DNA from: Chiayiivirga sp.
Lineage (GTDB): Bacteria; Pseudomonadota; Gammaproteobacteria; Xanthomonadales; Xanthomonadaceae
Assembly (NCBI GenBank): GCA_035703435.1
Contig: DASSYF010000016.1
Coordinates: 5,429-69,428, forward strand
Length of the DNA: 64,000 nucleotides
Direction: 5' to 3'
Position 1 is the first letter of the stretch; every line of letters begins with the position of its first letter. Below the pieces are notes generated by a model. It did no database searches, was not told where the DNA came from, and saw only the letters and a list, made by a program, of their open reading frames with translations. The position numbers were made by a program, and so were the translations under genes. Positions 3,255-36,624 of the stretch are shown one piece after another.

Positions 3255-3794
3255 CTACACGCCGGGAAACCGCGCCTCCATGCTCGCCACGAAGGCGCAC
3301 AGCAGGGCATCGCGCAGTTCAGCTTCACGCCACCATGCGGCGCGCAGTCGGGCAAAGGTCGTGGCGTGCATCCCTTTGGGCTTGGGGCCGTGGCCGTAGT
3401 GGTCTTGTTGCCAGTCCAAGCGCCGTTCGAGCGCCCATGTGCGCCGCCAGCTTCGATCTATCGCATCGCATCGGGTAGACGGATACGCCAGCCGGGCGCA
3501 GGTGCGACAGGCAGGCCAGCCGTGCGCGTAGAGAATCGCGCATCGGCGCTGGCAGCGTGGGCAACGGAACCATGCGCGCAGGCCGCCAAAGCGGCAGGGT
3601 GTCCATTCAAGTGCGATGCGCTGGTGAACGTCGCGCTCGCCATCGGCGAAGCGGTAGCGGTAATCCAGCGTCGCGGCGATGCTGTCCGGCCCGATGCCCT
3701 TGGCGCGCAGGTCGCGGACGTGGATACGCGACACGTCGCAGGTGCGTACATGGGTGGCCTTCCTGCCTGCGCCGTAGCGGGTTCCGCCTTTCAT
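3255..3794 (-). CDS. Hypothetical Cys-rich (zinc ribbon) protein of satellite-like islands
   Basis: 'WFRCPRCQRRCAILY...CRTCARLAYPS' with two CxxC pairs. Confidence 0.75.
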   Translation of the reverse strand: MKGGTRYGAGRKATHVRTCDVSRIHVRDLRAKGIGPDSIAATLDYRYRFADGERDVHQRIALEWTPCRFGGLRAWFRCPRCQRRCAILYAHGWPACRTCARLAYPSTRCDAIDRSWRRTWALERRLDWQQDHYGHGPKPKGMHATTFARLRAAWWREAELRDALLCAFVASMEARFPGV

Positions 3795-4268: not shown

Positions 4269-4514
4269 TCACTTGATCGCGTGGTACGCATCCCATGTGG
4301 CCGCGCTCATCTTCACGGTAGCGCGTGCATCCGCGTCAAGGATCAAGCGTTCAAGCATCGCGGCCTGCGTCATGCCCTTGTGCGCAGCGAGCCTGCGTAG
4401 CGCCAAGGCGGCGCGCTGGTCGCAGACGATGTTCAGGCGCGCGCGCGAACCTTCCACGTCGGACAGGTGACGCTGCCGGTAGGCGCGTTGCCGTTGTGCA
4501 TTGGTCTGTGCCAT
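4269..4514 (-). CDS. Small DNA-binding protein (RHH-like)
   Basis: 'MAQTNAQRQRAYRQRH...LRRLAAHKGMTQAAMLERLI'; bracketed by two identical palindromes. Confidence 0.7.
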   Translation of the reverse strand: MAQTNAQRQRAYRQRHLSDVEGSRARLNIVCDQRAALALRRLAAHKGMTQAAMLERLILDADARATVKMSAATWDAYHAIK

Positions 4515-4524
4515 GTGCAGAGAA

Positions 4525-4541
4525 TCCGTTACTGCGTAACG
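4525..4541. promoter_or_regulatory. Palindromic operator copy TCCGTTACTGCGTAACG
   Basis: 10 bp upstream of ATG 4514; identical to 4247..4263. Confidence 0.65.
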
Positions 4542-4582
4542 GAAGAATGGTGCAGATTGGATCATCATGCAAGCCGCAGCGG

Positions 4583-6102: not shown

Positions 6103-6302
6103 GCCGTGTTTCTCGCCAACAGGCCGGCGGCGGCGTCCAGAAAATCGGCGGCCACCACGTCGCGCGGGTCGGGTTCGTCGGTGGTCTGTGCGATGGCGTC
6201 CATGTCGGCGCAGGCGGCGCGTATGCGGGCAAGCGCAACCAAGCGGCGGGCATCCGGCAGGTGGTCGGGCGCGGCGCGTGTGGGGCCGCTGGTGGCGTTC
6301 AT
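6099..6302 (-). CDS. Small hypothetical protein
   Basis: ATGA-coupled to alpA upstream and to the primase downstream. Confidence 0.6.
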   Translation of the reverse strand: MNATSGPTRAAPDHLPDARRLVALARIRAACADMDAIAQTTDEPDPRDVVAADFLDAAAGLLARNTA

Positions 6303-6514
6303 GCGGCCTTGCCTTCATCGCGCGCGGCGATACGGGCAGCGATCCAGTCGGAAACTTCCGATTCAACCCATGCCGAGCAAAAGCCGAGCTTGACGGGTTT
6401 CGGAAAGTCGCCAGCGGCGATCAGGCGGTAAAGGTGCGTGCGGGACAGGCCAGAGCGTTGTTTCACGCTTGGCAGGCGTTCGAGTGCAGGCGGATGGTGT
6501 GCGGGGTTTGGCAT
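6299..6514 (-). CDS. alpA: AlpA family transcriptional regulator/excisionase
   Basis: 'LPSVKQRSGLSRTHLYRLIAAGDFPKPVKLG...AWVESEVSDWI'. Confidence 0.92.
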   Translation of the reverse strand: MPNPAHHPPALERLPSVKQRSGLSRTHLYRLIAAGDFPKPVKLGFCSAWVESEVSDWIAARIAARDEGKAA

Positions 6515-7303: not shown

Positions 7304-7391
7304 GCGTACCCTTACGCCCCTGTAGTAGAGCCGCGCCAGCGCCGCAGGGTGGCGGCGTTTTCGCCCCGTCGGGCTAGGCGCGGCGGTTCGG

Positions 7392-8776: not shown

Positions 8777-8853
8777 TGGTGGCTATGGGTGGACTCGAAC
8801 CACCGACCCCGGCATTATGAGTGCCGTGCTCTAACCGGCTGAGCTACATAGCC
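8777..8853 (-). tRNA. tRNA-Met (CAT, elongator)
   Basis: GGCTATGTAGCTCAGCCGGTTAGAGCACGGCACTCATAATGCCGGGGTCGGTGGTTCGAGTCCACCCATAGCCACCA; 77 nt, encoded CCA, resembles E. coli metT-type tRNA. Confidence 0.95.
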
Positions 8854-13995: not shown

Positions 13996-15564
13996 TCAAC
14001 ACCGCCACTGACTGCTCGCCACGCGCACCGACAGGGTGTCGAACAGCGCCCGGGCTTCAGCTTCGGGCAGGTGCCAAAGGTGCAGTCGATGCCCGAGCGG
14101 ATTGGCGCCTGCCGTATCGGCGTGCAGGCGCGCCATGCCGTGTCGACGATCGAAGGGCGACTGCAGCAGGCGCAGCCCCTGAAGTTTGTCGATGCGGGCA
14201 AAGGACAGGCGCCGATCCAGCCATCCGCTACGCCAGATCAGGAGGGTTTCGGTGAGTACAAAGCCGGCCGTAGCCGCCTGCTTGCGCGCCACGAAAATCC
14301 ACACCGGCAGCAGTAGCACGAGCAGAAGACTCGGCAAACCGAACCCGAGCAGCGAGACCGCGCACAGCAGCAGGGTCAGGACACAGGGCGGGACCGCCAG
14401 ACGCCGCCAGGCGCGTGGATGCACGGCCTGGAATACCAGCGGTTCGCGCCAGTCCGGCTCACACTGGCGCACGATGTCATCCAGCGCGGCCGGTGCGGCG
14501 ATGGGCACGAGCGCCGAGAGCGCGGCGTCCTTGCCGTCGCTTCGAAGGGTGGTGGTCTCGACACTCACACTGCGGCGATCGAGCCAGCGCATCAACAGGC
14601 CTTGCCGCAGACTCCAGTGCTGGATGCGCGACAGCGGCACGCTTGCGCGCACCCGCGTAATCAGCCCGCGTTCCACCGACACGCGCTCGTTCGAGCGTTC
14701 GAGGGTGAAGTCGTAGTCGCGCAGCAACACCAGCACGATGTTGATCACGCGCCCCAGCACCCAGGCCGCGATCAACACCACGCCAGCCAGCGCCAGCCAG
14801 ACCAGCCACGACAGATGCATTCCGCCGAGGAAATGACTCATGGATTGCGCCCAGGACTCGGCGTGGTCCTGGATGGACTCCTCGACGAGGTTGAACGCCG
14901 AGCCCATGGCGGCAAGAAAAAGCAGGGTGCCGCGGTCGGAAACGATCCCCAATTTGAGCAGCTCCGAGAGTGGCACCCGCAACAGCACCGTGGCTGCACT
15001 CGTCGCAGGTGACCGAGGCATCGATTCGAGGTGGGAATCGTGCACCGTGGTGGCCGACCCTGCGCCGTGCCGGTGCAACTCGACCAATTGTTCCAGCGCG
15101 CGGGCATCGTCCATCGACAGCACCTGCAGCCGCGCTTCCGGCTCATTGCCGGCGGCGGAGGATTCCAGTTGCACTTCGGCCACATCGAACGCGCGATGCA
15201 GGAGGTTGCGCTTCAAGCTCACCGCTTGGATCCGCGCCAGCGGCACGTGGCGCACCGTGCGTTGCAGCACACCGGTGGCAATCACCAGTTCATCGGCATC
15301 GATGCGAAAGCGCCAGGTGAAGTAACGCAACAGTGCCGCGATGGTCATGGCCGCCACGGCTACCAGTCCCCACCATTGCAAGGTGTCGTTCTCGCCACCC
15401 ACAAACAGCAGGACGATCAGCGGCAGCGCGAAACTTCGCAACTGCGCGAGCAACACGAAAGCCCATGAGAATGGATGCAGGCGGCGCTCGTCACCGGCCC
15501 CGAGCCGAGCCAGCGAGGCATCGGCATCGCGTGCTGCGGGCATCGGATCGCGTTCAGCCGGCAT
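13996..15564 (-). CDS. PH-domain membrane protein (YdbT-like)
   Basis: 'RLHPFSW', repeated bPH_2-like segments; coupled to the upstream short PH gene. Confidence 0.85.
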   Translation of the reverse strand: MPAERDPMPAARDADASLARLGAGDERRLHPFSWAFVLLAQLRSFALPLIVLLFVGGENDTLQWWGLVAVAAMTIAALLRYFTWRFRIDADELVIATGVLQRTVRHVPLARIQAVSLKRNLLHRAFDVAEVQLESSAAGNEPEARLQVLSMDDARALEQLVELHRHGAGSATTVHDSHLESMPRSPATSAATVLLRVPLSELLKLGIVSDRGTLLFLAAMGSAFNLVEESIQDHAESWAQSMSHFLGGMHLSWLVWLALAGVVLIAAWVLGRVINIVLVLLRDYDFTLERSNERVSVERGLITRVRASVPLSRIQHWSLRQGLLMRWLDRRSVSVETTTLRSDGKDAALSALVPIAAPAALDDIVRQCEPDWREPLVFQAVHPRAWRRLAVPPCVLTLLLCAVSLLGFGLPSLLLVLLLPVWIFVARKQAATAGFVLTETLLIWRSGWLDRRLSFARIDKLQGLRLLQSPFDRRHGMARLHADTAGANPLGHRLHLWHLPEAEARALFDTLSVRVASSQWRC

Positions 15565-16048
15565 CGGCCTCACCCTGAACCAAGGCATCGCGCAAGGCCT
15601 CGGCGCGGGCGGCCGGAAGGCCATTCAGACCCATTCGACCCAATTCCGTGCCCGCGGTATGGACGTACAGGCCTGCCAGGCCGAGGCGACGATCCAATGG
15701 CCCACGGTGCAGGTCGATATGTTGCAAGCGCGAGTGCGGGATCAATGCATCGCTACGCCACCACACCCCGCGCTGGATACGCAGGCCTTGCCCGGTCAAG
15801 GCAAAGCGCGTGCTGCGCCAGCGCGCACCGGCATACCACCATGCCCACACATACACTGCGCATGAGCCGATCAGGACAGCGGGCCTCATGGGATCGAGGG
15901 CATCCCAGAGCACGCTCAGTGGCCACAGGACCATCAAGATCAGCCCCAGCAGTGCGAACGTCGTCCACACCAGCGCGCCGATGCGCAAGCTCCAGCGTGC
16001 ACGCGGGTCGAGCGATTCGAACGGTGGCGCGGCGTGTGCATCAGTCAT
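15554..16048 (-). CDS. PH-domain membrane protein (YdbS-like)
   Basis: 'IPHSRLQHIDLHRGPLDRRLGLAGLYVHTAG'. Confidence 0.85.
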   Translation of the reverse strand: MTDAHAAPPFESLDPRARWSLRIGALVWTTFALLGLILMVLWPLSVLWDALDPMRPAVLIGSCAVYVWAWWYAGARWRSTRFALTGQGLRIQRGVWWRSDALIPHSRLQHIDLHRGPLDRRLGLAGLYVHTAGTELGRMGLNGLPAARAEALRDALVQGEADAG

Positions 16049-29859: not shown

Positions 29860-29887
29860 TAGTCATCGATGAGCATGTGCGCCGTGC

Positions 29888-29901
29888 TTGACCTGGATCA
29901 G
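29888..29901. promoter_or_regulatory. FNR/DNR-like box upstream of the DUF2249 gene
   Basis: TTGAC-CTGG-ATCAG versus consensus TTGAT-N4-ATCAA. Confidence 0.4.
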
Positions 29902-29958
29902 AGCCGACGCTGACCGCGCGGCCTAGCATGGCCACTCGTTTTGCGATCTGGAATGCCC

Positions 29959-30225
29959 ATGTCCTCGATGCTTGATCCCGAACCCAATGTCCACCTGTTC
30001 GATGCCCGTGGCATCGCGCGGCGCTTCCGTCATTCGGCCATCTTTGGTGCGCTCGGCGCGCTGCGCAATGGCGAGACGATGCGCTTCATGAACGATCACG
30101 ACCCGATTCCCCTGCTGCACCAATTGAATGATCGTTTCGGCGAGTTCCTCACCGTGACCTATCTGCAACGCGAGGTGGGTGGCGTGGTGATCGATTTCTC
30201 CATCAACGGCTTGCCGGAAGAGTGA
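29959..30225 (+). CDS. DUF2249 domain protein
   Basis: 'FDARGIARRFRHSAIFGALGALRNGETMRFMNDHDP.PLL.QL'. Confidence 0.85.
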   Translation: MSSMLDPEPNVHLFDARGIARRFRHSAIFGALGALRNGETMRFMNDHDPIPLLHQLNDRFGEFLTVTYLQREVGGVVIDFSINGLPEE

Positions 30226-30229
30226 TCTG

Positions 30230-30844
30230 ATGCCATTCCCCAGCTTCTTCGCCAAGGCACCGCGTATCCATCTGCGGGATGGGCTGGCCGACTTTCTCGG
30301 CGCAGCCGAAGACGGCCTGATGGAGTACGGCTACGAGGATGCCGTGCGCGTAGCCGGGCACTCCTGCCCGACCGTGGCCGGCTCATGGTTGATGGCGCGT
30401 GCGGCGCTGCGTGCCTTGTACCCCGATGGCCTTGCCGAGCGCGGCGGGATTCGGGTGACGATGCAGGCTGGCGAAGACGAGGGCACCACCGGCGTCATCG
30501 CGCAGGTGTTCACCTTGGTCACCGGCGCTGCGGCCAACAACGGTTTCCACGGCATTGGCGGGCGTTTCACCCGGCATGGCCTGTTGAGCTATGGCGATGC
30601 CAGCGTGCGGGGCATTGCGCGGGTGTGTCGCATCGATACCGGCGCCAGTGTCGAAGTAAGCATGGACCTGTCGAGCATCCCGCCGGTGCCGCAAATGCGC
30701 AGACTGATGATGCAGGCGATGGACGAGAACGCCGCGCCCGACGTGCGCGCCGCTTTCGGCGCGGCGTGGCAGGATCGGGTACGGCGCTTGTTGCTGGAGC
30801 ACGCCGATGACCGGGCCGTGATTCTGGTGCATCCCCTCGGCTGA
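30230..30844 (+). CDS. FmdE-like metal-binding hypothetical protein
   Basis: 'AGHSCPTVAG' His/Cys motif; 4 bp after the DUF2249 gene. Confidence 0.75.
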   Translation: MPFPSFFAKAPRIHLRDGLADFLGAAEDGLMEYGYEDAVRVAGHSCPTVAGSWLMARAALRALYPDGLAERGGIRVTMQAGEDEGTTGVIAQVFTLVTGAAANNGFHGIGGRFTRHGLLSYGDASVRGIARVCRIDTGASVEVSMDLSSIPPVPQMRRLMMQAMDENAAPDVRAAFGAAWQDRVRRLLLEHADDRAVILVHPLG

Positions 30845-30908
30845 GTCCGTACGCGTGGTCATTACGCCTGAATTGGTTCTGTAAAACGTAACAAATGCAT
30901 AATTTCAT

Positions 30909-30939
30909 TTGACGATATTCGGCTATTAGCCTAATATCG
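30909..30939 (+). promoter_or_regulatory. Sigma-70 promoter overlapped by a 27-bp imperfect palindrome
   Basis: TTGACG(30909)-17 bp-TAATAT(30932); palindrome CGATATTCGGCT-ATT-AGCCTAATATCG at 30913..30939. Confidence 0.65.
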
Positions 30940-30943
30940 TATT

Positions 30944-31429
30944 GTGAATACCGAACTCGACAACACCGACATCGAACTCCTCACCCTCTTGCAAGAAGGT
31001 GTCGGCCTGACCAATGCCGAACTCGGCCAGCGCGTCGGGCTTTCCGCACCGGCTACCCATGCGCGGGTGCGTCGCTTGCAGCAACACGGCCTGATCCGCG
31101 CCAACGTCGCCCTGCTCGATCACGAGAAACTTGGGCTGGATCTGGTCTGCTTCGTGCAGATCACCTTGCGCCTGCATTCGGCTGATTTGGTGAGCGAGTT
31201 TCGCCGCCAGGTTGCCGCCGTGCCCGAGGTGCTCGAATGCCACCACGTCACCGGCGAGTTCGATTACCTGATCAAGCTCGTCGTACCCAATCGCCACGCG
31301 CTGGAGCATCTGGTCGTCAACGTGCTCACCCCCTTGCCCGGCGTCGAGCGCCTGTGCACCAGCTTGGCGCTGTCGGAAATCAAGCAAACCCACGCCCTGC
31401 CCCTCGGCCATCTGCGCCAGGGCGGCTGA
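30944..31429 (+). CDS. Lrp/AsnC family transcriptional regulator
   Basis: 'LTNAELGQRVGLSAPATHARVRRL', 'ECHHVTGEFDYLIK'. Confidence 0.93.
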   Translation: MNTELDNTDIELLTLLQEGVGLTNAELGQRVGLSAPATHARVRRLQQHGLIRANVALLDHEKLGLDLVCFVQITLRLHSADLVSEFRRQVAAVPEVLECHHVTGEFDYLIKLVVPNRHALEHLVVNVLTPLPGVERLCTSLALSEIKQTHALPLGHLRQGG

Positions 31430-32878
<1,449 letters not shown>

Positions 32879-32900
32879 GGGTAGACGACACAACATCACC

Positions 32901-32928
32901 TTTCCGAGCTGCCTGTGCGGCAGCGTAC
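32901..32928 (-). CRISPR. Isolated type I-F-like CRISPR repeat (variant copy)
   Basis: Minus strand GTACGCTGCCGCACAGGCAGCTCGGAAA: 28 nt, CTGCC-5 nt-GGCAG hairpin, 8-nt GAAA handle; 25/28 identical to 33571..33598. Confidence 0.75.
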
Positions 32929-32974
32929 AAATGGATCTGTCACGTTCGGTGTGGACCAGTCATACACGGGACGC

Positions 32975-33002
32975 TTTACAACCCTTATTGCATCCTTATA
33001 CT
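32975..33002 (+). promoter_or_regulatory. Sigma-70 promoter of the TA operon, probably giving a leaderless toxin mRNA
   Basis: TTTACA(32975)-16 bp-TATACT(32997..33002); toxin ATG 7 bp further, no SD. Confidence 0.65.
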
Positions 33003-33009
33003 TGCGTCC

Positions 33010-33267
33010 ATGAACCGCATTGGCTGGACACCCAAGGCCGCCAAGCAATTGCGCAGGCTGCCAAAGACGGTGCAGGGTGACATCCGCGACGCGGTGCAGG
33101 ACAAGCTGCCGCACTTCCCCAAGTGCAGCGGCGTCAAGGCGCTGGTGAATCATCAGTACGGCTACCGCCTGCGGGTGGGCAATTACCGGGTGCTGTTCAA
33201 CTTTGAGAGCATCATCACGCTGGTTCGCATCGAAGAGGTAGGCAAACGCGATGAACGCACTTACTGA
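33010..33267 (+). CDS. RelE/ParE superfamily toxin (HigB-like, toxin-first)
   Basis: 'IGWTPKAAKQLRRLP...YRLRVGNYRVLF...IEEVGKRDERTY'. Confidence 0.9.
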   Translation: MNRIGWTPKAAKQLRRLPKTVQGDIRDAVQDKLPHFPKCSGVKALVNHQYGYRLRVGNYRVLFNFESIITLVRIEEVGKRDERTY

Positions 33268-33577
33268 CATCCAAACCATCAAGGGTGCGGACGGGCAGCC
33301 GGCATTCGTCGTGGTGCCGTACGCCGAGTACATGCGCCGCTTTGCCCATGAAGAAGGCCTGATTCCACAGGACGTGGTTAGCGCCACGGTGGACGGCGCC
33401 AGCCCGATGAAGGCATGGCGCGAGTACTTGGGGCTCACCCAAGCGGAGGTCGCCGTACGCCTTGGCGTGTCGCAGGCCGCCTACTCGCAGACGGAAGCCG
33501 CTGCGCGCCCTCGCAAGGCCACCGTGGCGCGGGTGGCGGCGGCGCTGCGTCTGGCAGTGGAGCAGCTGGATTTCTGA
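33251..33577 (+). CDS. Xre-HTH antitoxin (HigA-like)
   Basis: 'PAFVVVPYAEY', 'MKAWREYLGLTQAEVAVRLGVSQAAYSQTE'; 17-bp overlap with the toxin. Confidence 0.9.
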   Translation: MNALTDIQTIKGADGQPAFVVVPYAEYMRRFAHEEGLIPQDVVSATVDGASPMKAWREYLGLTQAEVAVRLGVSQAAYSQTEAAARPRKATVARVAAALRLAVEQLDF

Positions 33578-33598
33578 GCTGCCTGTGTGGCAGCGAAC
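33571..33598 (-). CRISPR. Isolated type I-F-like CRISPR repeat (consensus-like copy)
   Basis: Minus strand GTTCGCTGCCACACAGGCAGCTCAGAAA; matches the canonical I-F pattern GTTCACTGCC-N5-GGCAGCT-AGAAA. Confidence 0.85.
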
Positions 33599-33664
33599 TT
33601 TTGCAACCGCGCCTATCCGGGTCGACGGCGCGTTGCATGCGCATGGCCGAATCAGCCACCGAAC

Positions 33665-33931
33665 TCAGGACGAATCATCCCCGACACGTTCGACTCGCTG
33701 GCGAAAGTTCTTCACGTTGTCACCGGCAATGCGAGCGGCCCGCGTGCCTTTGATTTCGTCGATCTTGTGATCACCGTCCGCACCGGTGATCGGTTTGGCC
33801 TTGACGTCGGTTTCGCGTTCAAAGGCGTGCGACTTGTCGGTGTTCCGGTAGTACCGGTAGATCATCCAGTACAAGCCTATGGCACCGGCCGGGCCCATCG
33901 CGAGCAAAGCAAGACTGCCATCGTCACTCAT
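33665..33931 (-). CDS. Small single-TM hypothetical protein
   Basis: 'MSDDGSLALLAMGPAGAIGLYWMIYRYYRNTDKSH.FERET'; 2 bp downstream of the zinc-ribbon gene. Confidence 0.7.
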   Translation of the reverse strand: MSDDGSLALLAMGPAGAIGLYWMIYRYYRNTDKSHAFERETDVKAKPITGADGDHKIDEIKGTRAARIAGDNVKNFRQRVERVGDDSS

Positions 33932-33933
33932 GT

Positions 33934-35244
33934 TCAACTCCCGATGAGCCAAAGGGCGATTGCTTCCAGGAAGGTGCCCGTGGTGATGGAGGCGAGCAGC
34001 AATTTCCATTGTTGCACTGGGATGCTGCCCATGGTTTCGCCGGTGCGCCCGTTGACCGCGATGTAGTGCAACATGCCGCCGTTGCTGCCCGGTTGATGAT
34101 AGGAATAGAGCCACACCGGCAGGTACATCGAAACCCAGCGCGTGCCATGCACATCAAGGCGCTCCTGCAGCCAGCACACGCCACGATCGTAACGACGCAC
34201 CGAAGGCACCACTTGCGAGCGGGCGATCGATAACAACTGGTCTTCCAGTCGCGGTCGGAGTTCTTCGACATTGCTGTCGCGTTTTTCCGATGAAAAGCCG
34301 GACAGGTAAGACGCATTCCACTTCACCGCATTCTTGGTGTCGAACGGCAGGATGGTGTTGATGATGTTGTTGGTATTGACGCGCGAGTCCTGGTCGGCGC
34401 GCTCGCTGGATGACTCCAGGGGCAGGTCGTCCACGGTGAAATCCACATGCCGCTCGACGCGGTAGATATCCGCGTCGTAATAGGTTTTCTTGTCGTTGCC
34501 ACTGCCGCGGGTGTACTCGCGCGTTTTGATTTCACCCCGCCCCGCGACATCGGCGCTGGCATTGCCATCCACGATCATGTACGGCAGATACACGCCAACG
34601 ACATTCTCCGGCGTGAACTGCTCCTTGAAGGCCTTGAGTGCGAACAATCGACGCTTGTCGACGAACTGGCGGATGCGTGCCACGGCATCGTCTTTCTTGA
34701 TGTGGAACGGCAGGACGGCATCGGGCACCGCGCCATTGGCGATCTGCTCGTTGACGCCCAATACATGCCGACACCAATGACAGCGCGCGGTCATGGCGTT
34801 TTCGGTATTGACCGTCACCTCGGCGCCACAACCGCTGCACTTGAAGCTCATCAGGCTGGAAACATCGGCATCGATGTCCTTGGCACCGGAGGCAATCACC
34901 GTGCCTTGCAGGCTGTCGATGTCTTCCCCCAGACCGAAGGCTTCCTCGACACGCTGGCCTTGCCACTCGTTGCGGCAAAACAGGCAGACCAGCACGTCGC
35001 TGCCCGGCTTCTGCCGAATATCGGTGGCACCACATTTTGGGCAGCGATTGGCGCCGTCCTTGAGCTCGTCGGCGGCGGTATCAATGGCGACCGGATCCGG
35101 CGCAGTCAACTCATCCCGAATCGGCTTGGGCAAGGTCGAAGGATCAATCGGAAAACTACCGGGTGCCGGTGGCACATCACGCGGCGAGCCGGGACCTGTG
35201 GGTGCCGCCGGCGGGACCGGCGGCGGCGTCTTGGCATCAGACAT
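33934..35244 (-). CDS. TFIIB-type zinc-ribbon protein with C-terminal TM (YdjG-like)
   Basis: CPKC, CLFC, CSGC, CHWC motifs; 'AVNGRTGETMGSIP' then a TM helix. Confidence 0.8.
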   Translation of the reverse strand: MSDAKTPPPVPPAAPTGPGSPRDVPPAPGSFPIDPSTLPKPIRDELTAPDPVAIDTAADELKDGANRCPKCGATDIRQKPGSDVLVCLFCRNEWQGQRVEEAFGLGEDIDSLQGTVIASGAKDIDADVSSLMSFKCSGCGAEVTVNTENAMTARCHWCRHVLGVNEQIANGAVPDAVLPFHIKKDDAVARIRQFVDKRRLFALKAFKEQFTPENVVGVYLPYMIVDGNASADVAGRGEIKTREYTRGSGNDKKTYYDADIYRVERHVDFTVDDLPLESSSERADQDSRVNTNNIINTILPFDTKNAVKWNASYLSGFSSEKRDSNVEELRPRLEDQLLSIARSQVVPSVRRYDRGVCWLQERLDVHGTRWVSMYLPVWLYSYHQPGSNGGMLHYIAVNGRTGETMGSIPVQQWKLLLASITTGTFLEAIALWLIGS

Positions 35245-35263
35245 GTAGGCGCTACTCCGCAGC

Positions 35264-36415
35264 TTACAAACCCAGCGTCTTGGCCTTGAGGGCGTCGTAA
35301 TCGGCCTGCGTGATCAGGCCCAGATCGAGCATGTCCTTGGCCTTTTTCAATTTGGCGATGGGATCCTCGGCCGCCGGCGCAGGCGCGGCCACGGGCTGCT
35401 GGATGCCTGCGATGCCGCCCATCATACCGCCCGCCATGCCCAGGCCCATCAAACCTGCGGCGCCACTGGTTTCGCCCGCTGACTGGATGCCCTGCGCCAC
35501 GCTGGCCTGCAGGTTGGAGTTGCCACGCGAACCCATCAGCGCATCGGCACGCTGCACCGTCTTCAGCAACTCGCGGGTGTTGGCGTCGTATTCGATCGAG
35601 ACGATGGCGGTCTTGACGATCGCCAAGCCACGGTCGGATTTCCACTGGTAGGCGTTTTCCACCGCATCGCTCAGGCTCTTGGCAAAGCCGACCGAATCCT
35701 GCTGGATCTTGGTGATGCGATTGCCCTTGCTCGGATCATTGGTGTACAGGCTGAACGCGGGCGCCAGGGAGCCCACGACTTCGTTGAACAACTGACTGGC
35801 GGCGGCGTTGTCGAGATCGGTGAAATCGAACACCTTGCCGGCTTGCAGGTAGCTGGCAGGAACGAAGTTCTTCACGAACAAGATCGGATCGACGATCTTC
35901 AAGGTGTACGAGCCACGCGTGACCGCGCCAACCTGGGTGTTGAGGAAGCCATCGTCCCAGTAAATTTCCGACTGGGTGCCGAATCGGTTGTCCGGCAGTT
36001 CCTTGAGCGAAACAAAGAACGCCGCCTGTTGCGCGCCCGGCTGACCGCCAAACTTGAATCGCTCCCAGCTCTGCTTGATCAGGGCATCGACCAAGCCATC
36101 ACCGGAGAAGATCGACTTGGAGTTGATGTCGTCCGAACGCCACTCGTAGCCGCCCGGCTCGGCCGCAAAGCCGGTGATCTTGCCGTCTTGGAAAAGCAGC
36201 AGGCCGTACCCTTCCGGCACCACGATTTTTGAACCGTTGGTGATGATGTTGGATGAGCCTTGGGTGTTGGAACCCCGCCCTGCGTTGCTGCCTTGCGGTA
36301 CGGCCGCAAACAGCGCGGCGGTGGAAGGCAGACCCGCCGGCACCGTGTAGAAGTCCTTCCACTGGTCAGCCAACATGCCGCCGACTGCACCTGTCACTGC
36401 CTTGATCAAACCCAT
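35264..36415 (-). CDS. SPFH/band-7-like protein with C-terminal SHOCT (YdjI-like)
   Basis: 'MGLIKAV...ADQWKDF', 'SNIITNGSKIVVPEG', 'RFGTQ'; C-terminal 'KLKKAKDMLDLGLITQADYDALKAK'. Confidence 0.85.
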   Translation of the reverse strand: MGLIKAVTGAVGGMLADQWKDFYTVPAGLPSTAALFAAVPQGSNAGRGSNTQGSSNIITNGSKIVVPEGYGLLLFQDGKITGFAAEPGGYEWRSDDINSKSIFSGDGLVDALIKQSWERFKFGGQPGAQQAAFFVSLKELPDNRFGTQSEIYWDDGFLNTQVGAVTRGSYTLKIVDPILFVKNFVPASYLQAGKVFDFTDLDNAAASQLFNEVVGSLAPAFSLYTNDPSKGNRITKIQQDSVGFAKSLSDAVENAYQWKSDRGLAIVKTAIVSIEYDANTRELLKTVQRADALMGSRGNSNLQASVAQGIQSAGETSGAAGLMGLGMAGGMMGGIAGIQQPVAAPAPAAEDPIAKLKKAKDMLDLGLITQADYDALKAKTLGL

Positions 36416-36624
36416 GACTGCATCTCCCTGTTGCGCGGCCGGCACCGTGCCGGCCGTGGACCTGCACTATACGACCCCGGGCGCCCGAGTCGGACATCGA
36501 CATGAGGGGAGATTTCAATCGCGAGGGTTCGGTATCCGCGATCGTGAAGCCATGGTCAGCGCTCCGGCGTGATCCCGTTCGGCGCAGTCGGGATGTGTTG
36601 GTGTGTATTGAGTCCCACCCGCGT

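Follow-up and report, generated by a model that had tools for sequence, protein, structure and literature searches.

Genuine CRISPR repeats can persist without cas genes as orphan or residual arrays, and cas-positive and cas-negative alleles of such loci coexist; the orphan I-F arrays of Enterobacteria and CRISPR2 of Enterococcus faecalis are examples. In integron cassette arrays, toxin-antitoxin (TA) cassettes are embedded among short recombinogenic repeats and can limit large deletions. CRISPR-Cas loci also harbor TA modules. Those of the CreTA and CrePA group, known from type I systems including type I-F, lie between cas3 and csy1 and use a crRNA-like RNA antitoxin (gene creA), with two pseudo-repeats around a pseudo-spacer of ~30 nt, partly complementary to a PAM-adjacent site in the toxin promoter. 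Type II pairs occur in the cas cassettes of Sulfolobales, where vapBC modules have been proposed to aid maintenance (PMC4390879). Foreign DNA can also lie between repeats: an 899-bp plasmid fragment does so in locus F of S. solfataricus (PMC4390879), and the prophage PhiAP1.1 integrates into the CRISPR repeats of S. pyogenes (10.1101/2020.10.09.333658).

Here we describe a locus that resembles several of these systems. In a stretch of 64 kb (the window), two type I-F repeats, R1 and R2, flank 642 bp that encode a predicted TA operon. Like an orphan array, the locus retains genuine repeats without cas genes, but only the last two repeats are left, and what lies between them is a protein-coding operon and no spacer. 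Like CreTA and CrePA, it combines a toxin module inside an I-F locus with two repeat-like sequences; unlike them, it has an Xre protein antitoxin, its repeats lie at the array trailer with 642 bp between them, and genome comparisons suggest that loss of cas is tolerated. The vapBC-type pairs are likewise conventional protein modules, but they lie among cas genes, whereas this one lies between two array repeats. Compared with the IS, plasmid and PhiAP1.1 inserts, which are also long non-spacer segments bounded by repeats, it is a self-contained TA operon without transposase or integrase, fixed at the terminal slot and kept across lineages and after array loss. It differs from integron TA cassettes in having CRISPR repeats rather than attC sites, no integron integrase and one cassette only. 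Our literature search found no type II TA between two CRISPR repeats, in keeping with the initial annotation, which was aware of no description of this architecture. We propose, at a probability of roughly 80%, that the locus represents the trailer end of a type I-F array on the chromosome, stripped of all else, in which a TA module was captured before the cas genes and spacers were deleted.

Results

The locus comprises the following features.

31466-32878, plus strand: beta-eliminating lyase gene (tpl/tnaA-like; Pfam PF01212, E = 3e-80), conserved right neighbor of the array trailer
32901-32928, minus strand (crRNA sense): R1, last (trailer-end) repeat of type I-F, degenerate; sequence GTACGCTGCCGCACAGGCAGCTCGGAAA when read as crRNA
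32929-32974, no strand assigned: segment from R1 to the promoter, which may be what is left of the original oldest spacer, of donor flank or of both
32975-33002, plus strand: predicted sigma-70-like promoter of the TA, TTTACA-16 nt-TATACT, with the direct-repeat motif CCTTAT
33010-33267, plus strand: toxin gene, ParE/RelE superfamily, 85 aa (Pfam PF05016, ParE_toxin, 27.6 bits, cutoff 23)
33251-33577, plus strand: antitoxin gene, Xre-type HTH, 108 aa (Pfam HTH_31, 39.1 bits; HTH_3, 35 bits)
33571-33598, minus strand: R2, penultimate repeat of the putative former array, GTTCGCTGCCACACAGGCAGCTCAGAAA, with one loop mismatch against the consensus
33599-33664, no strand assigned: proposed deletion scar and flank, 66 bp common to cas-positive relatives, with a hairpin at 33603-33636
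33665-33931, minus strand: 88-aa gene, last of the SPFH / Zn-ribbon / 88-aa operon, conserved left neighbor of the CRISPR-Cas site

The initial annotation had reported two 28-bp repeats in the same orientation, 25/28 identical, around a RelE-type toxin and an Xre antitoxin, and our analysis confirmed the coordinates and the promoter and assigned Pfam domains to both proteins. The repeats read TTTCCGAGCTGCCTGTGCGGCAGCGTAC (32901-32928) and TTTCTGAGCTGCCTGTGTGGCAGCGAAC (33571-33598) on the forward strand, and their starts are 670 bp apart. They are the only two matches at up to 3 mismatches in the window, where shuffled sequences (n=100) lead one to expect 0. The motif CTGCC-N5-GGCAG also occurs just twice, in R1 and R2, against 0.2 expected. 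Both repeats fold as ....((((((.....))))))......., a 6-bp stem with a 5-nt loop (-11.5 and -12.3 kcal/mol), and in each this Cas6f-type stem-loop is followed by an 8-nt handle ending in GAAA (CUCAGAAA in R2, CUCGGAAA in R1).

Comparison with the Rfam family CRISPR-DR4 (RF01317; gathering score 35 bits) bears out the I-F repeat shape noted earlier. Both repeats align on the minus strand with the full model (positions 1-28 of 28). R2 passes the gathering score with 38.8 bits and R1, at 29.5 bits, falls short of it; the R1 copies of loci L004 and L005 reach 33.1 bits. A sub-threshold score is expected of a degenerate terminal repeat such as R1: it deviates from the array consensus GTTCGCTGCCGCACAGGCAGCTCAGAAA at 2 positions, its substitutions differ by lineage with an extra change in each, and the decay hits the handle region. 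The exact repeat is found at 67 genome loci in arrays of up to 133 copies, and the unit builds arrays of tens to more than 100 units across many proteobacterial genomes. In relatives these regular arrays adjoin I-F cas genes, as in L002, where the array lies downstream of csy4. By sequence, fold and array membership we identify R1 and R2 as genuine type I-F CRISPR repeats.

Each 28-mer sits just downstream of a stop codon (that of tpl or of the antitoxin gene) and forms a GC-rich hairpin, which would also fit REP-type or terminator hairpins with an accidental likeness to an I-F repeat. We consider the chance of this negligible. Two copies in 64 kb do not make the dispersed family that the initial annotation had offered as an alternative, both copies align over the full length of CRISPR-DR4, and long arrays beside I-F cas genes, at this locus in relatives too, are built from the same sequence. 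Chance resemblance was rejected with it. In other genomes the repeat forms tandem arrays with 32-nt spacers.

The toxin and antitoxin genes overlap by 17 nt, and the last codon and stop of the antitoxin gene lie inside R2. By their domains the two proteins form a predicted type II protein TA, encoded in one operon with its own promoter; the contrast with the RNA-based CreTA, already drawn in the initial annotation, thus stands. The promoter is the only sigma-70-like site between 32800 and 33750. PADLOC, NCBIfam and PDB sequence searches gave only the generic HTH and ParE/RelE assignment, with a weak RelE match of the toxin in PDB (E = 0.79). The toxin ORF is intact in all array-embedded copies, and both genes show purifying selection, with dN/dS of 0.15-0.31 for the toxin and 0.07-0.22 for the antitoxin (informative pairs). 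Unstranded metatranscriptome contigs cover parts of the TA at a depth of 2-3. What follows R2 is the antitoxin 3' end in antisense, and it is flanked by AA, not by the CC PAM.

The window holds no third repeat, no AT-rich leader and no run of at least three repeats at ~60-bp spacing. A tblastn search of it with six Cas proteins of L002 gave a best E-value of 0.075, that is, no homologue, and neither the regular repeats and leader nor the cas1, cas2/3 and csy1-4 genes of a functional CRISPR-Cas locus are present within it. The earlier observation that a third repeat and cas genes are missing is accurate for the window. What it describes is a deletion, not a special architecture, as the relative L002 shows at the same site. 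In this metagenome scaffold the identical 88-aa gene, with the 66-bp flank as in the window, is followed by cas1, cas2/3, csy1-4, a leader of 43% GC and an array of consensus repeats. Between its cas2/3 and csy1 genes, L002 also has a PIN-FitA pair. When the junctions of the window, L004, L005 and L079 are aligned with those of L002, L007 and L009, the 66-bp flank is followed by the upstream region of cas1 in the relatives and directly by R2 in the window. The exact 88-aa protein adjoins cas1 in L002, L007 and L009 and adjoins the TA in L003-L006 and L008. Over the 88-aa gene, the window and the cas-positive contig L009 share 99.6% identity. Judged from these contigs, cas-less and cas-positive alleles coexist in the population.

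The other side of the locus is preserved in L078, which is syntenic with the window through tpl and contains R1, the 642-bp TA, R2, three 32-nt spacers, an IS630 insertion and more than 75 further repeats. The R2 variant of the window sits at the same position there, and regular 32-nt spacers follow. All 83 repeats of L078 are in minus orientation, which places the TA at the trailer end of the array, with R1 as the last repeat. The 'giant spacer' placement suggested by the initial annotation is thus seen within a real array of more than 80 repeats. The spacing of 642 bp is identical in the window, L001/L006 (one contig, not two loci), L004, L005, L008, L078, L079 and L080, and the tpl-like gene is syntenic in L004, L005, L038, L078 and L079. 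The full layout is a composite of two sequences from different samples, L002 and L078; the latter has no cas gene, and no one contig spans cas genes, array and TA.

The initial annotation had reasoned that a normal multi-spacer array in relatives, together with repeat-free TA homologues, would mark the pair as simple decay. The observations agree with this in part; the layout with the TA between repeats, however, predates the decay. No relative was found to show an array abutting tpl without the TA, the state expected before insertion, and among other repeat-bearing genomes only L038 is syntenic.

How the TA came to lie between the repeats can be approached through its homologues. A scan of their flanks, as the initial annotation had envisaged, turned up no I-F repeat at other loci: none is present at ~170 homologous TA loci in other contexts (L077, L085, L171, L174, L177, L178, 80 metagenome loci and 80 viral loci). 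The repeats are thus not a property of the TA family, and a single capture is indicated. L097 is alone among the homologues in having flanking direct repeats, which are ~130 nt long and unrelated. The promoter is kept in the CRISPR-free loci L077 and L085, with which segment 32929-32974 is not clearly shared; a search for protospacers of this segment gave no match beyond chance in phage records. The TA segment has no DNA match among PLSDB plasmids. Relatives of the antitoxin number 153 on IMG/VR contigs, and the family's frequency in prophage-like contigs and variable islands suggests a mobile origin.

Homologous antitoxin genes naturally end in (T/C)TT(C/T)TGA, in some cases followed by GC, and the natural end of the antitoxin gene at the R2 junction has the form GATTTCTGA[GC]. 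This natural terminus, TTTCTGA, matches the repeat end exactly, and a stretch of 7-9 nt is shared at the TA/R2 boundary. Almost all antitoxin homologues are 108 aa long and end in QLDF with the same natural gene end, which ruled out an antitoxin truncated or completed by the repeat. A boundary that falls within 7-9 nt of identity favors microhomology joining over Cas1-mediated duplication of the repeat, one of the routes proposed initially.

In a Cas-mediated route, I-F Cas1-Cas2/3 would have integrated the 642-bp TA fragment at a repeat and duplicated that repeat, and the TA would be an oversized oldest spacer. The insert does fill a spacer position in a real array, it is abutted by two full-length repeats in the same orientation, and its trailer position is compatible with very early acquisition. 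We nevertheless find this route quite improbable. An integrase that acts independently of homology would meet the 7-9-nt natural antitoxin gene end, present in CRISPR-free homologues, with a chance of ~4^-7. Spacers of related arrays are otherwise 31-33 nt long, and in ~45 arrays with this repeat every other oversized insert is an IS or an inter-array region (IS630 in L078 and IS30 in L029 are long inserts bounded by repeats). Our literature search found no description of an integrating fragment of this size.

Alternatively, a larger element such as a prophage or integrative island that carried this TA could have inserted site-specifically into the terminal repeat region by way of a repeat-like attachment site, and then decayed until nothing but its addiction module was left between the two att-derived repeats. 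TA modules are typical last survivors of decayed mobile elements, and this antitoxin family is common on viral contigs. There is precedent in PhiAP1.1, whose attP shares 8 bp with the CRISPR repeat (10.1101/2020.10.09.333658), and in the 899-bp plasmid fragment between two Sulfolobus repeats (PMC4390879). Integration of the PhiAP1.1 type, however, splits one repeat and does not leave two complete ones. No integrase or other remnant of an element lies between R1 and R2, and no copy of the 28-mer occurs in 2.9 million IMG/VR contigs or in the 80 viral TA loci, all of which makes this origin unlikely. Nor does the locus resemble a mini-array, solitary repeat unit or RNA anti-CRISPR carried by a mobile element, given that absence from IMG/VR and a chromosomal position that is syntenic across strains.

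The orientation of the repeats bears on function. Their crRNA sense is the minus strand, so the 'spacer' would be antisense to the TA genes, and array transcription would run antisense through the TA. In cas-positive strains, read-through with Cas6f cutting at R2 and R1 could then release a ~670-nt antisense RNA or giant crRNA that controls the TA, which would guard the locus like CreTA or CrePA. Both hairpins are intact, the layout is kept across lineages, and CRISPR-guarding TAs have precedent in I-F loci. Such Cas coupling is highly unlikely, however. The module has its own protein antitoxin and a conserved promoter of the autoregulated type, and the handle region of R1 is decaying. Several lineages, abundant in metagenomes, have lost the whole cas locus and array and keep the TA intact under purifying selection. 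Cas loss thus appears not to be lethal; this genome-based argument speaks against the Cas control suggested by the initial annotation and against the dependence on Cas that characterizes CreTA and CrePA.

Discussion

The known parts of this locus are an orphan CRISPR relic, a TA in a CRISPR locus and foreign DNA between repeats; their combination is unusual but seems largely explainable from the comparisons above. We propose an ancestral order of SPFH operon, cas1, cas2/3, csy1-4, AT-rich leader, long array, R2, 642-bp TA, R1 and tpl. The TA cassette would have taken the oldest, trailer-end spacer slot once, in this lineage, either alone or as the last remnant of a larger insert. Its most likely route of entry is illegitimate recombination at the 7-9-nt identity on the R2 side; microhomology could account for this junction, but not for that on the R1 side.

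The later loss would be the work of one deletion that took out the cas operon, the leader and all spacers as far as the first base of R2, so that R2-TA-R1 remained. We infer both its polarity and its single origin. Its endpoint lies ~0-4 nt from the first base of R2, a precision not obviously expected of random illegitimate recombination. That the deletion stopped just short of the TA may plausibly be due to the addictive nature of the predicted module. Self-targeting as a cause of cas loss finds no support in the 87 spacers of L078 and L002, none of which has a better-than-chance match in the window. R1 and R2 of the window strain would now be inert relics, serving at most as 3' hairpins for the tpl and TA mRNAs, and the TA would be an ordinary type II module, selfishly maintained. 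It is possible that a second I-F system elsewhere in the source genome still processes R1 and R2.

If our reading is correct, one locus records three events: the oldest spacer position of an active I-F array with over 80 spacers came to be occupied by a protein-coding addiction module, CRISPR-Cas was lost in part of the population, and repeat-TA-repeat was left as the sole trace. For annotation, this means that genes flanked by an isolated pair of CRISPR repeats can mark what is left of a deleted array and not a new device. The locus is also a natural substrate for asking what spacer length Cas6f and the Csy complex can accept, how antisense array transcription affects an embedded operon, and whether a TA limits viable deletions in a repeat array, as has been proposed for integron cassettes.

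One could envision a broader scenario in which CRISPR repeats act as landing sites for gene cassettes, through I-F Cas1-Cas2/3 or repeat-directed recombination, here with a TA operon of 0.6 kb installed as a 'spacer'. In cas-positive strains, Cas6f would then excise a 'giant crRNA' of ~670 nt in antisense, which either enters Csy complexes or modulates the TA. We consider this unlikely. If true, the TA would be a working part of the array, a trailer anchor or guard, and not a passenger.

Some details of the cas-less alleles deserve mention. L003 and L008 carry a short-flank allele. A second deletion was first suspected because, in L008, the last spacer of L078 is matched by the 7 nt that precede R2. 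The L003 allele corresponds to the L005 type with a single contiguous stretch of 29 nt missing from the flank hairpin; a secondary indel explains this more simply, and two independent cas deletions were dropped as an account. Metagenome unitigs on the window break up at the repeat.

A toxin-antitoxin operon between two I-F repeats

Repeats R1 and R2 enclose a toxin-antitoxin (TA) pair, with the following features:

32901-32928: R1, the repeat on the tpl (beta-eliminating lyase gene) side, TTTCCGAGCTGCCTGTGCGGCAGCGTAC; crRNA sense (minus strand), GTACGCTGCCGCACAGGCAGCTCGGAAA
32975-33002: sigma-70-like promoter, TTTACA-16-TATACT
33010-33267: toxin, ParE/RelE superfamily, 85 aa (PF05016, 27.6 bits)
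33251-33577: antitoxin, Xre-HTH, 108 aa (HTH_31, 39.1 bits)
33571-33598: R2, the repeat on the side of an 88-aa gene, TTTCTGAGCTGCCTGTGTGGCAGCGAAC; crRNA sense (minus strand), GTTCGCTGCCACACAGGCAGCTCAGAAA

As the initial annotation reported, R1 and R2 are direct repeats that agree at 25 of 28 positions and lie 642 bp apart. Each folds into a 6-bp stem with a 5-nt loop. The Rfam model CRISPR-DR4 (type I-F repeat) covers both over all 28 positions on the minus strand, at 38.8 bits for R2, which exceeds the gathering score of 35, and 29.5 bits for R1. In the 64-kb window these are the only matches to the 28-mer with up to 3 mismatches (expected, 0) and the only CTGCC-N5-GGCAG sites (expected, 0.2); neither a third repeat nor an I-F cas homologue was found there, again as first described. 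When one genome per GTDB species was scanned with the pattern GTWCGCTGCCRCACAGGCAGCTCRGAAA, 67 loci matched, in Xanthomonadales/Lysobacterales, Comamonas, Halomonas, Stenotrophomonas and other hosts. With few exceptions these are arrays in which 32-nt spacers alternate regularly with the repeat, up to 133 copies of it. This bears out the I-F assignment and therefore refutes the possibility, raised at the outset, that the 28-mers belong to a dispersed REP family. A Castellaniella MAG (L061) has an isolated copy with 1 mismatch (6280-6307) on the opposite strand, at ~4 kb from its array; this could mark where a second array begins or serve as a regulatory repeat.

The toxin and antitoxin genes overlap by 17 nt, and the last antitoxin codon and stop (TTC TGA) fall within R2. 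Both ORFs are intact in all array-embedded copies, with dN/dS of 0.07-0.3 for either gene, and the promoter and its CCTTAT direct repeats are conserved where the context is unrelated. Metatranscriptome contigs cover part of the operon, at low depth and without strand information. The pair resembles a normal, active type II module.

The same locus in relatives

The 88-aa protein encoded directly right of R2 (33665-33931, minus strand) recurs with identical sequence on several metagenome contigs. On contig L002 (ENA ERZ28614527 scaffold_194; ~92% identical to the window), its gene is followed by the same 66-bp flank, cas1, cas2/3, a PIN/FitA pair, csy1, csy2, csy3 and csy4, then by a 128-bp leader (GC 43% versus 63% in surrounding DNA) and an array with consensus repeat GTTCGCTGCCGCACAGGCAGCTCAGAAA. 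The junction of the 88-aa gene with cas1 recurs on L007 and L009, the latter 99.6% identical to the window across 736 shared bp. The L002 pair between cas2/3 and csy1 (14906-15606) comprises a PIN-domain toxin and a FitA-like RHH antitoxin.

Contig L078 (ENA ERZ4567617 NODE_779) is syntenic with the window across an AsnC-type regulator and tpl, and its antitoxin is 96% identical. After tpl come a degenerate repeat (2 mismatches), the 642-bp TA segment and R2, whose loop carries the window's variant; beyond R2, three spacers of the usual 32 nt precede an IS630-family insertion, and more than 75 further perfect repeats then fill the rest of the contig. All repeats are in minus orientation, which places the leader past the end of the contig and the TA at the oldest end of the array, the trailer. 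Pieced together from two contigs of different samples, L002 for the cas side and L078 for the array and TA side, the ancestral order would thus be SPFH operon, cas operon, leader, long array, R2, TA, R1, tpl. The likening of the TA to a giant spacer holds in that it occupies a spacer slot of a real array in L078; the lack of cas genes and further repeats, in contrast, is no special architecture, as a relative (L002) carries a cas operon, leader and array at this site.

Transposase genes also lie between two perfect I-F array repeats, an IS630-family DDE_3 gene in L078 (10529-11720) and an IS30-like gene in Comamonas testosteroni SWCO2 (L029, 5122-6381). The operon next to the CRISPR-Cas site is constant (33934-36445 in the window). 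It encodes an SPFH/Band-7 protein ending in a SHOCT tail, a zinc-ribbon protein of 436 aa and the 88-aa protein, and has no PADLOC match.

A probable deletion-derived allele

In the window and on five further contigs (L004, L005, L006, L079 and L080), a 66-67-bp flank joins the first base of R2 directly (...GGTTGCAA(C)AA|GTTCGC). In cas-positive alleles the same flank continues into the cas1 upstream region (...CAAACGGAAGT|GGACGG). Because CRISPR repeats arise solely through CRISPR adaptation, the cas-less state must be the derived one and the window allele, on these junctions, a deletion product. The deletion would have taken ~10 kb of cas genes as well as the array, and halted at R2, right by the stop codon of the antitoxin gene. 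We infer that the window element is what is left of an I-F array after its deletion, the TA operon filling the terminal spacer slot. Orphan arrays left after cas loss are well known.

R1 fits this position. Its inferred ancestral form is 1 position off consensus, and its handle-region changes differ by lineage (A24G in the window, G25A in L005, T3G and A26T in L078), a pattern typical of terminal repeats free of constraint.

The flank is ~28 bp shorter in L003 and L008. A second independent deletion was considered and rejected: the alignment shows the short form to be the common allele lacking a single unbroken block of 29 nt from the flank hairpin, for which a secondary indel would be the simpler explanation. 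The 29 nt take out most of a GC-rich hairpin (GCAACCGCGCC...GGCGCGTTGC) at 33603-33636, between R2 and the 88-aa gene. Self-targeting is not visible as a cause of cas loss, with 0 of 87 spacers of L078 and L002 matching the window.

Lineages that carry the cas-less allele and those with the cas-positive one are otherwise 92-99.6% identical. Along window 29886-33489, the identity of a GTDB MAG (KLAP82, L038) rises from 80-90% to 98-100% within tpl, at ~32434, and remains high across R1 and the TA. Such a jump indicates recent recombinational exchange, or a chimeric contig, and suggests that the locus has been exchanged by homologous recombination.

Origin of the TA and its junctions

Antitoxin relatives number in the hundreds. 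The closest loci outside the tpl synteny, P0004 (93% identical antitoxin; L177, L178), P0007 (88%; L077, a Rudaea MAG), P0015 (86%), and P0020 and P0026 (83%), have no I-F repeat within several kb. Nor is one present at 80 metagenome TA loci (antitoxin identity 54-80%) or at the 80 of 153 IMG/VR TA loci examined (49-64%). The repeats are therefore no feature of the TA family, and capture appears to be one event in this lineage.

An 87%-identical antitoxin, P0010, lies in a type III-B locus (L081, L082) with a 5'-truncated toxin, ~1.5 kb beyond a 37-nt-repeat array. This array (L081 3410-4467; L082 1545-2602) adjoins cas1/cas2 and type III-B genes; at its end, two degenerate repeats enclose 984 bp of inserted sequence with a 186-aa ORF. 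Next come a ParE TA and then P0010 with its toxin. In L097, a 70%-identical TA homologue lies between direct repeats of ~130 nt (3424-3552 and 4441-4565; 82% identical, 47/50 core) that are not CRISPR-like.

Almost all antitoxin homologues are 108 aa long and end in QLDF, their genes closing with GA(T/C)TT(C/T)TGA, followed in some by GC. Since the 3' end of the repeat reads TTTCTGAGC as its reverse complement, the TA/R2 boundary falls within 7-9 nt common to the natural gene end and the repeat, which neither cut off nor completed the antitoxin. A junction within shared sequence is a signature of microhomology-mediated joining, one that this junction appears to bear. A homology-independent integrase would have placed the boundary within those shared nucleotides only by luck. 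On the R1 side, homology with CRISPR-free TA loci begins at the promoter, ~45-65 nt 5' of the ATG. The 18-45 nt adjoining R1 (from 32929) fall outside it and have no protospacer match; they may be a remnant of the original terminal spacer.

Function and comparison with known systems

In cas-positive strains, array transcription is predicted from repeat orientation to run antisense through the TA, and Cas6f could cleave at R2 and R1. A giant antisense crRNA processed by Cas6f, or capture of the cassette by Cas1, would make the locus far more significant; we consider either improbable. Nothing in the data appears to point to antisense transcription or Cas6f cutting affecting the TA. Lineages that have lost the entire cas locus retain it, and they are found widely in metagenomes from soil, sludge and wastewater. 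The TA is most simply read as a passenger that is hard to delete, a reading that agrees with, though it is not proved by, a deletion that stopped beside the antitoxin stop codon. The initial annotation was correct in its observation of a TA between repeats and partly supported in its interpretation.

The CRISPR-guarding toxins CreTA and CrePA have RNA antitoxins, with two pseudo-repeats around a ~30-nt pseudo-spacer, and lie between cas3 and csy1 (10.1101/2024.01.05.574328; PMC12737573), where L002 holds its PIN/FitA pair. The window TA, in contrast, has a protein antitoxin, repeats 642 bp apart and no PAM-flanked partial target, and its lineages tolerate cas loss; on these four points it is not a CreTA. 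Conventional TA pairs within cas cassettes and an 899-bp plasmid fragment between two Sulfolobus repeats are known (PMC4390879), as is a prophage integrating into CRISPR repeats via 8 bp of identity (10.1101/2020.10.09.333658). No report of a type II TA in a spacer slot was found in the literature searched, the coverage of which is incomplete, so that absence is no proof.

Elsewhere in the window, an int-alpA RNA (63 bits) and an adjacent tRNA gene (7317-7384 and 8780-8853, both minus strand) suggest an integrative element at a tRNA site.
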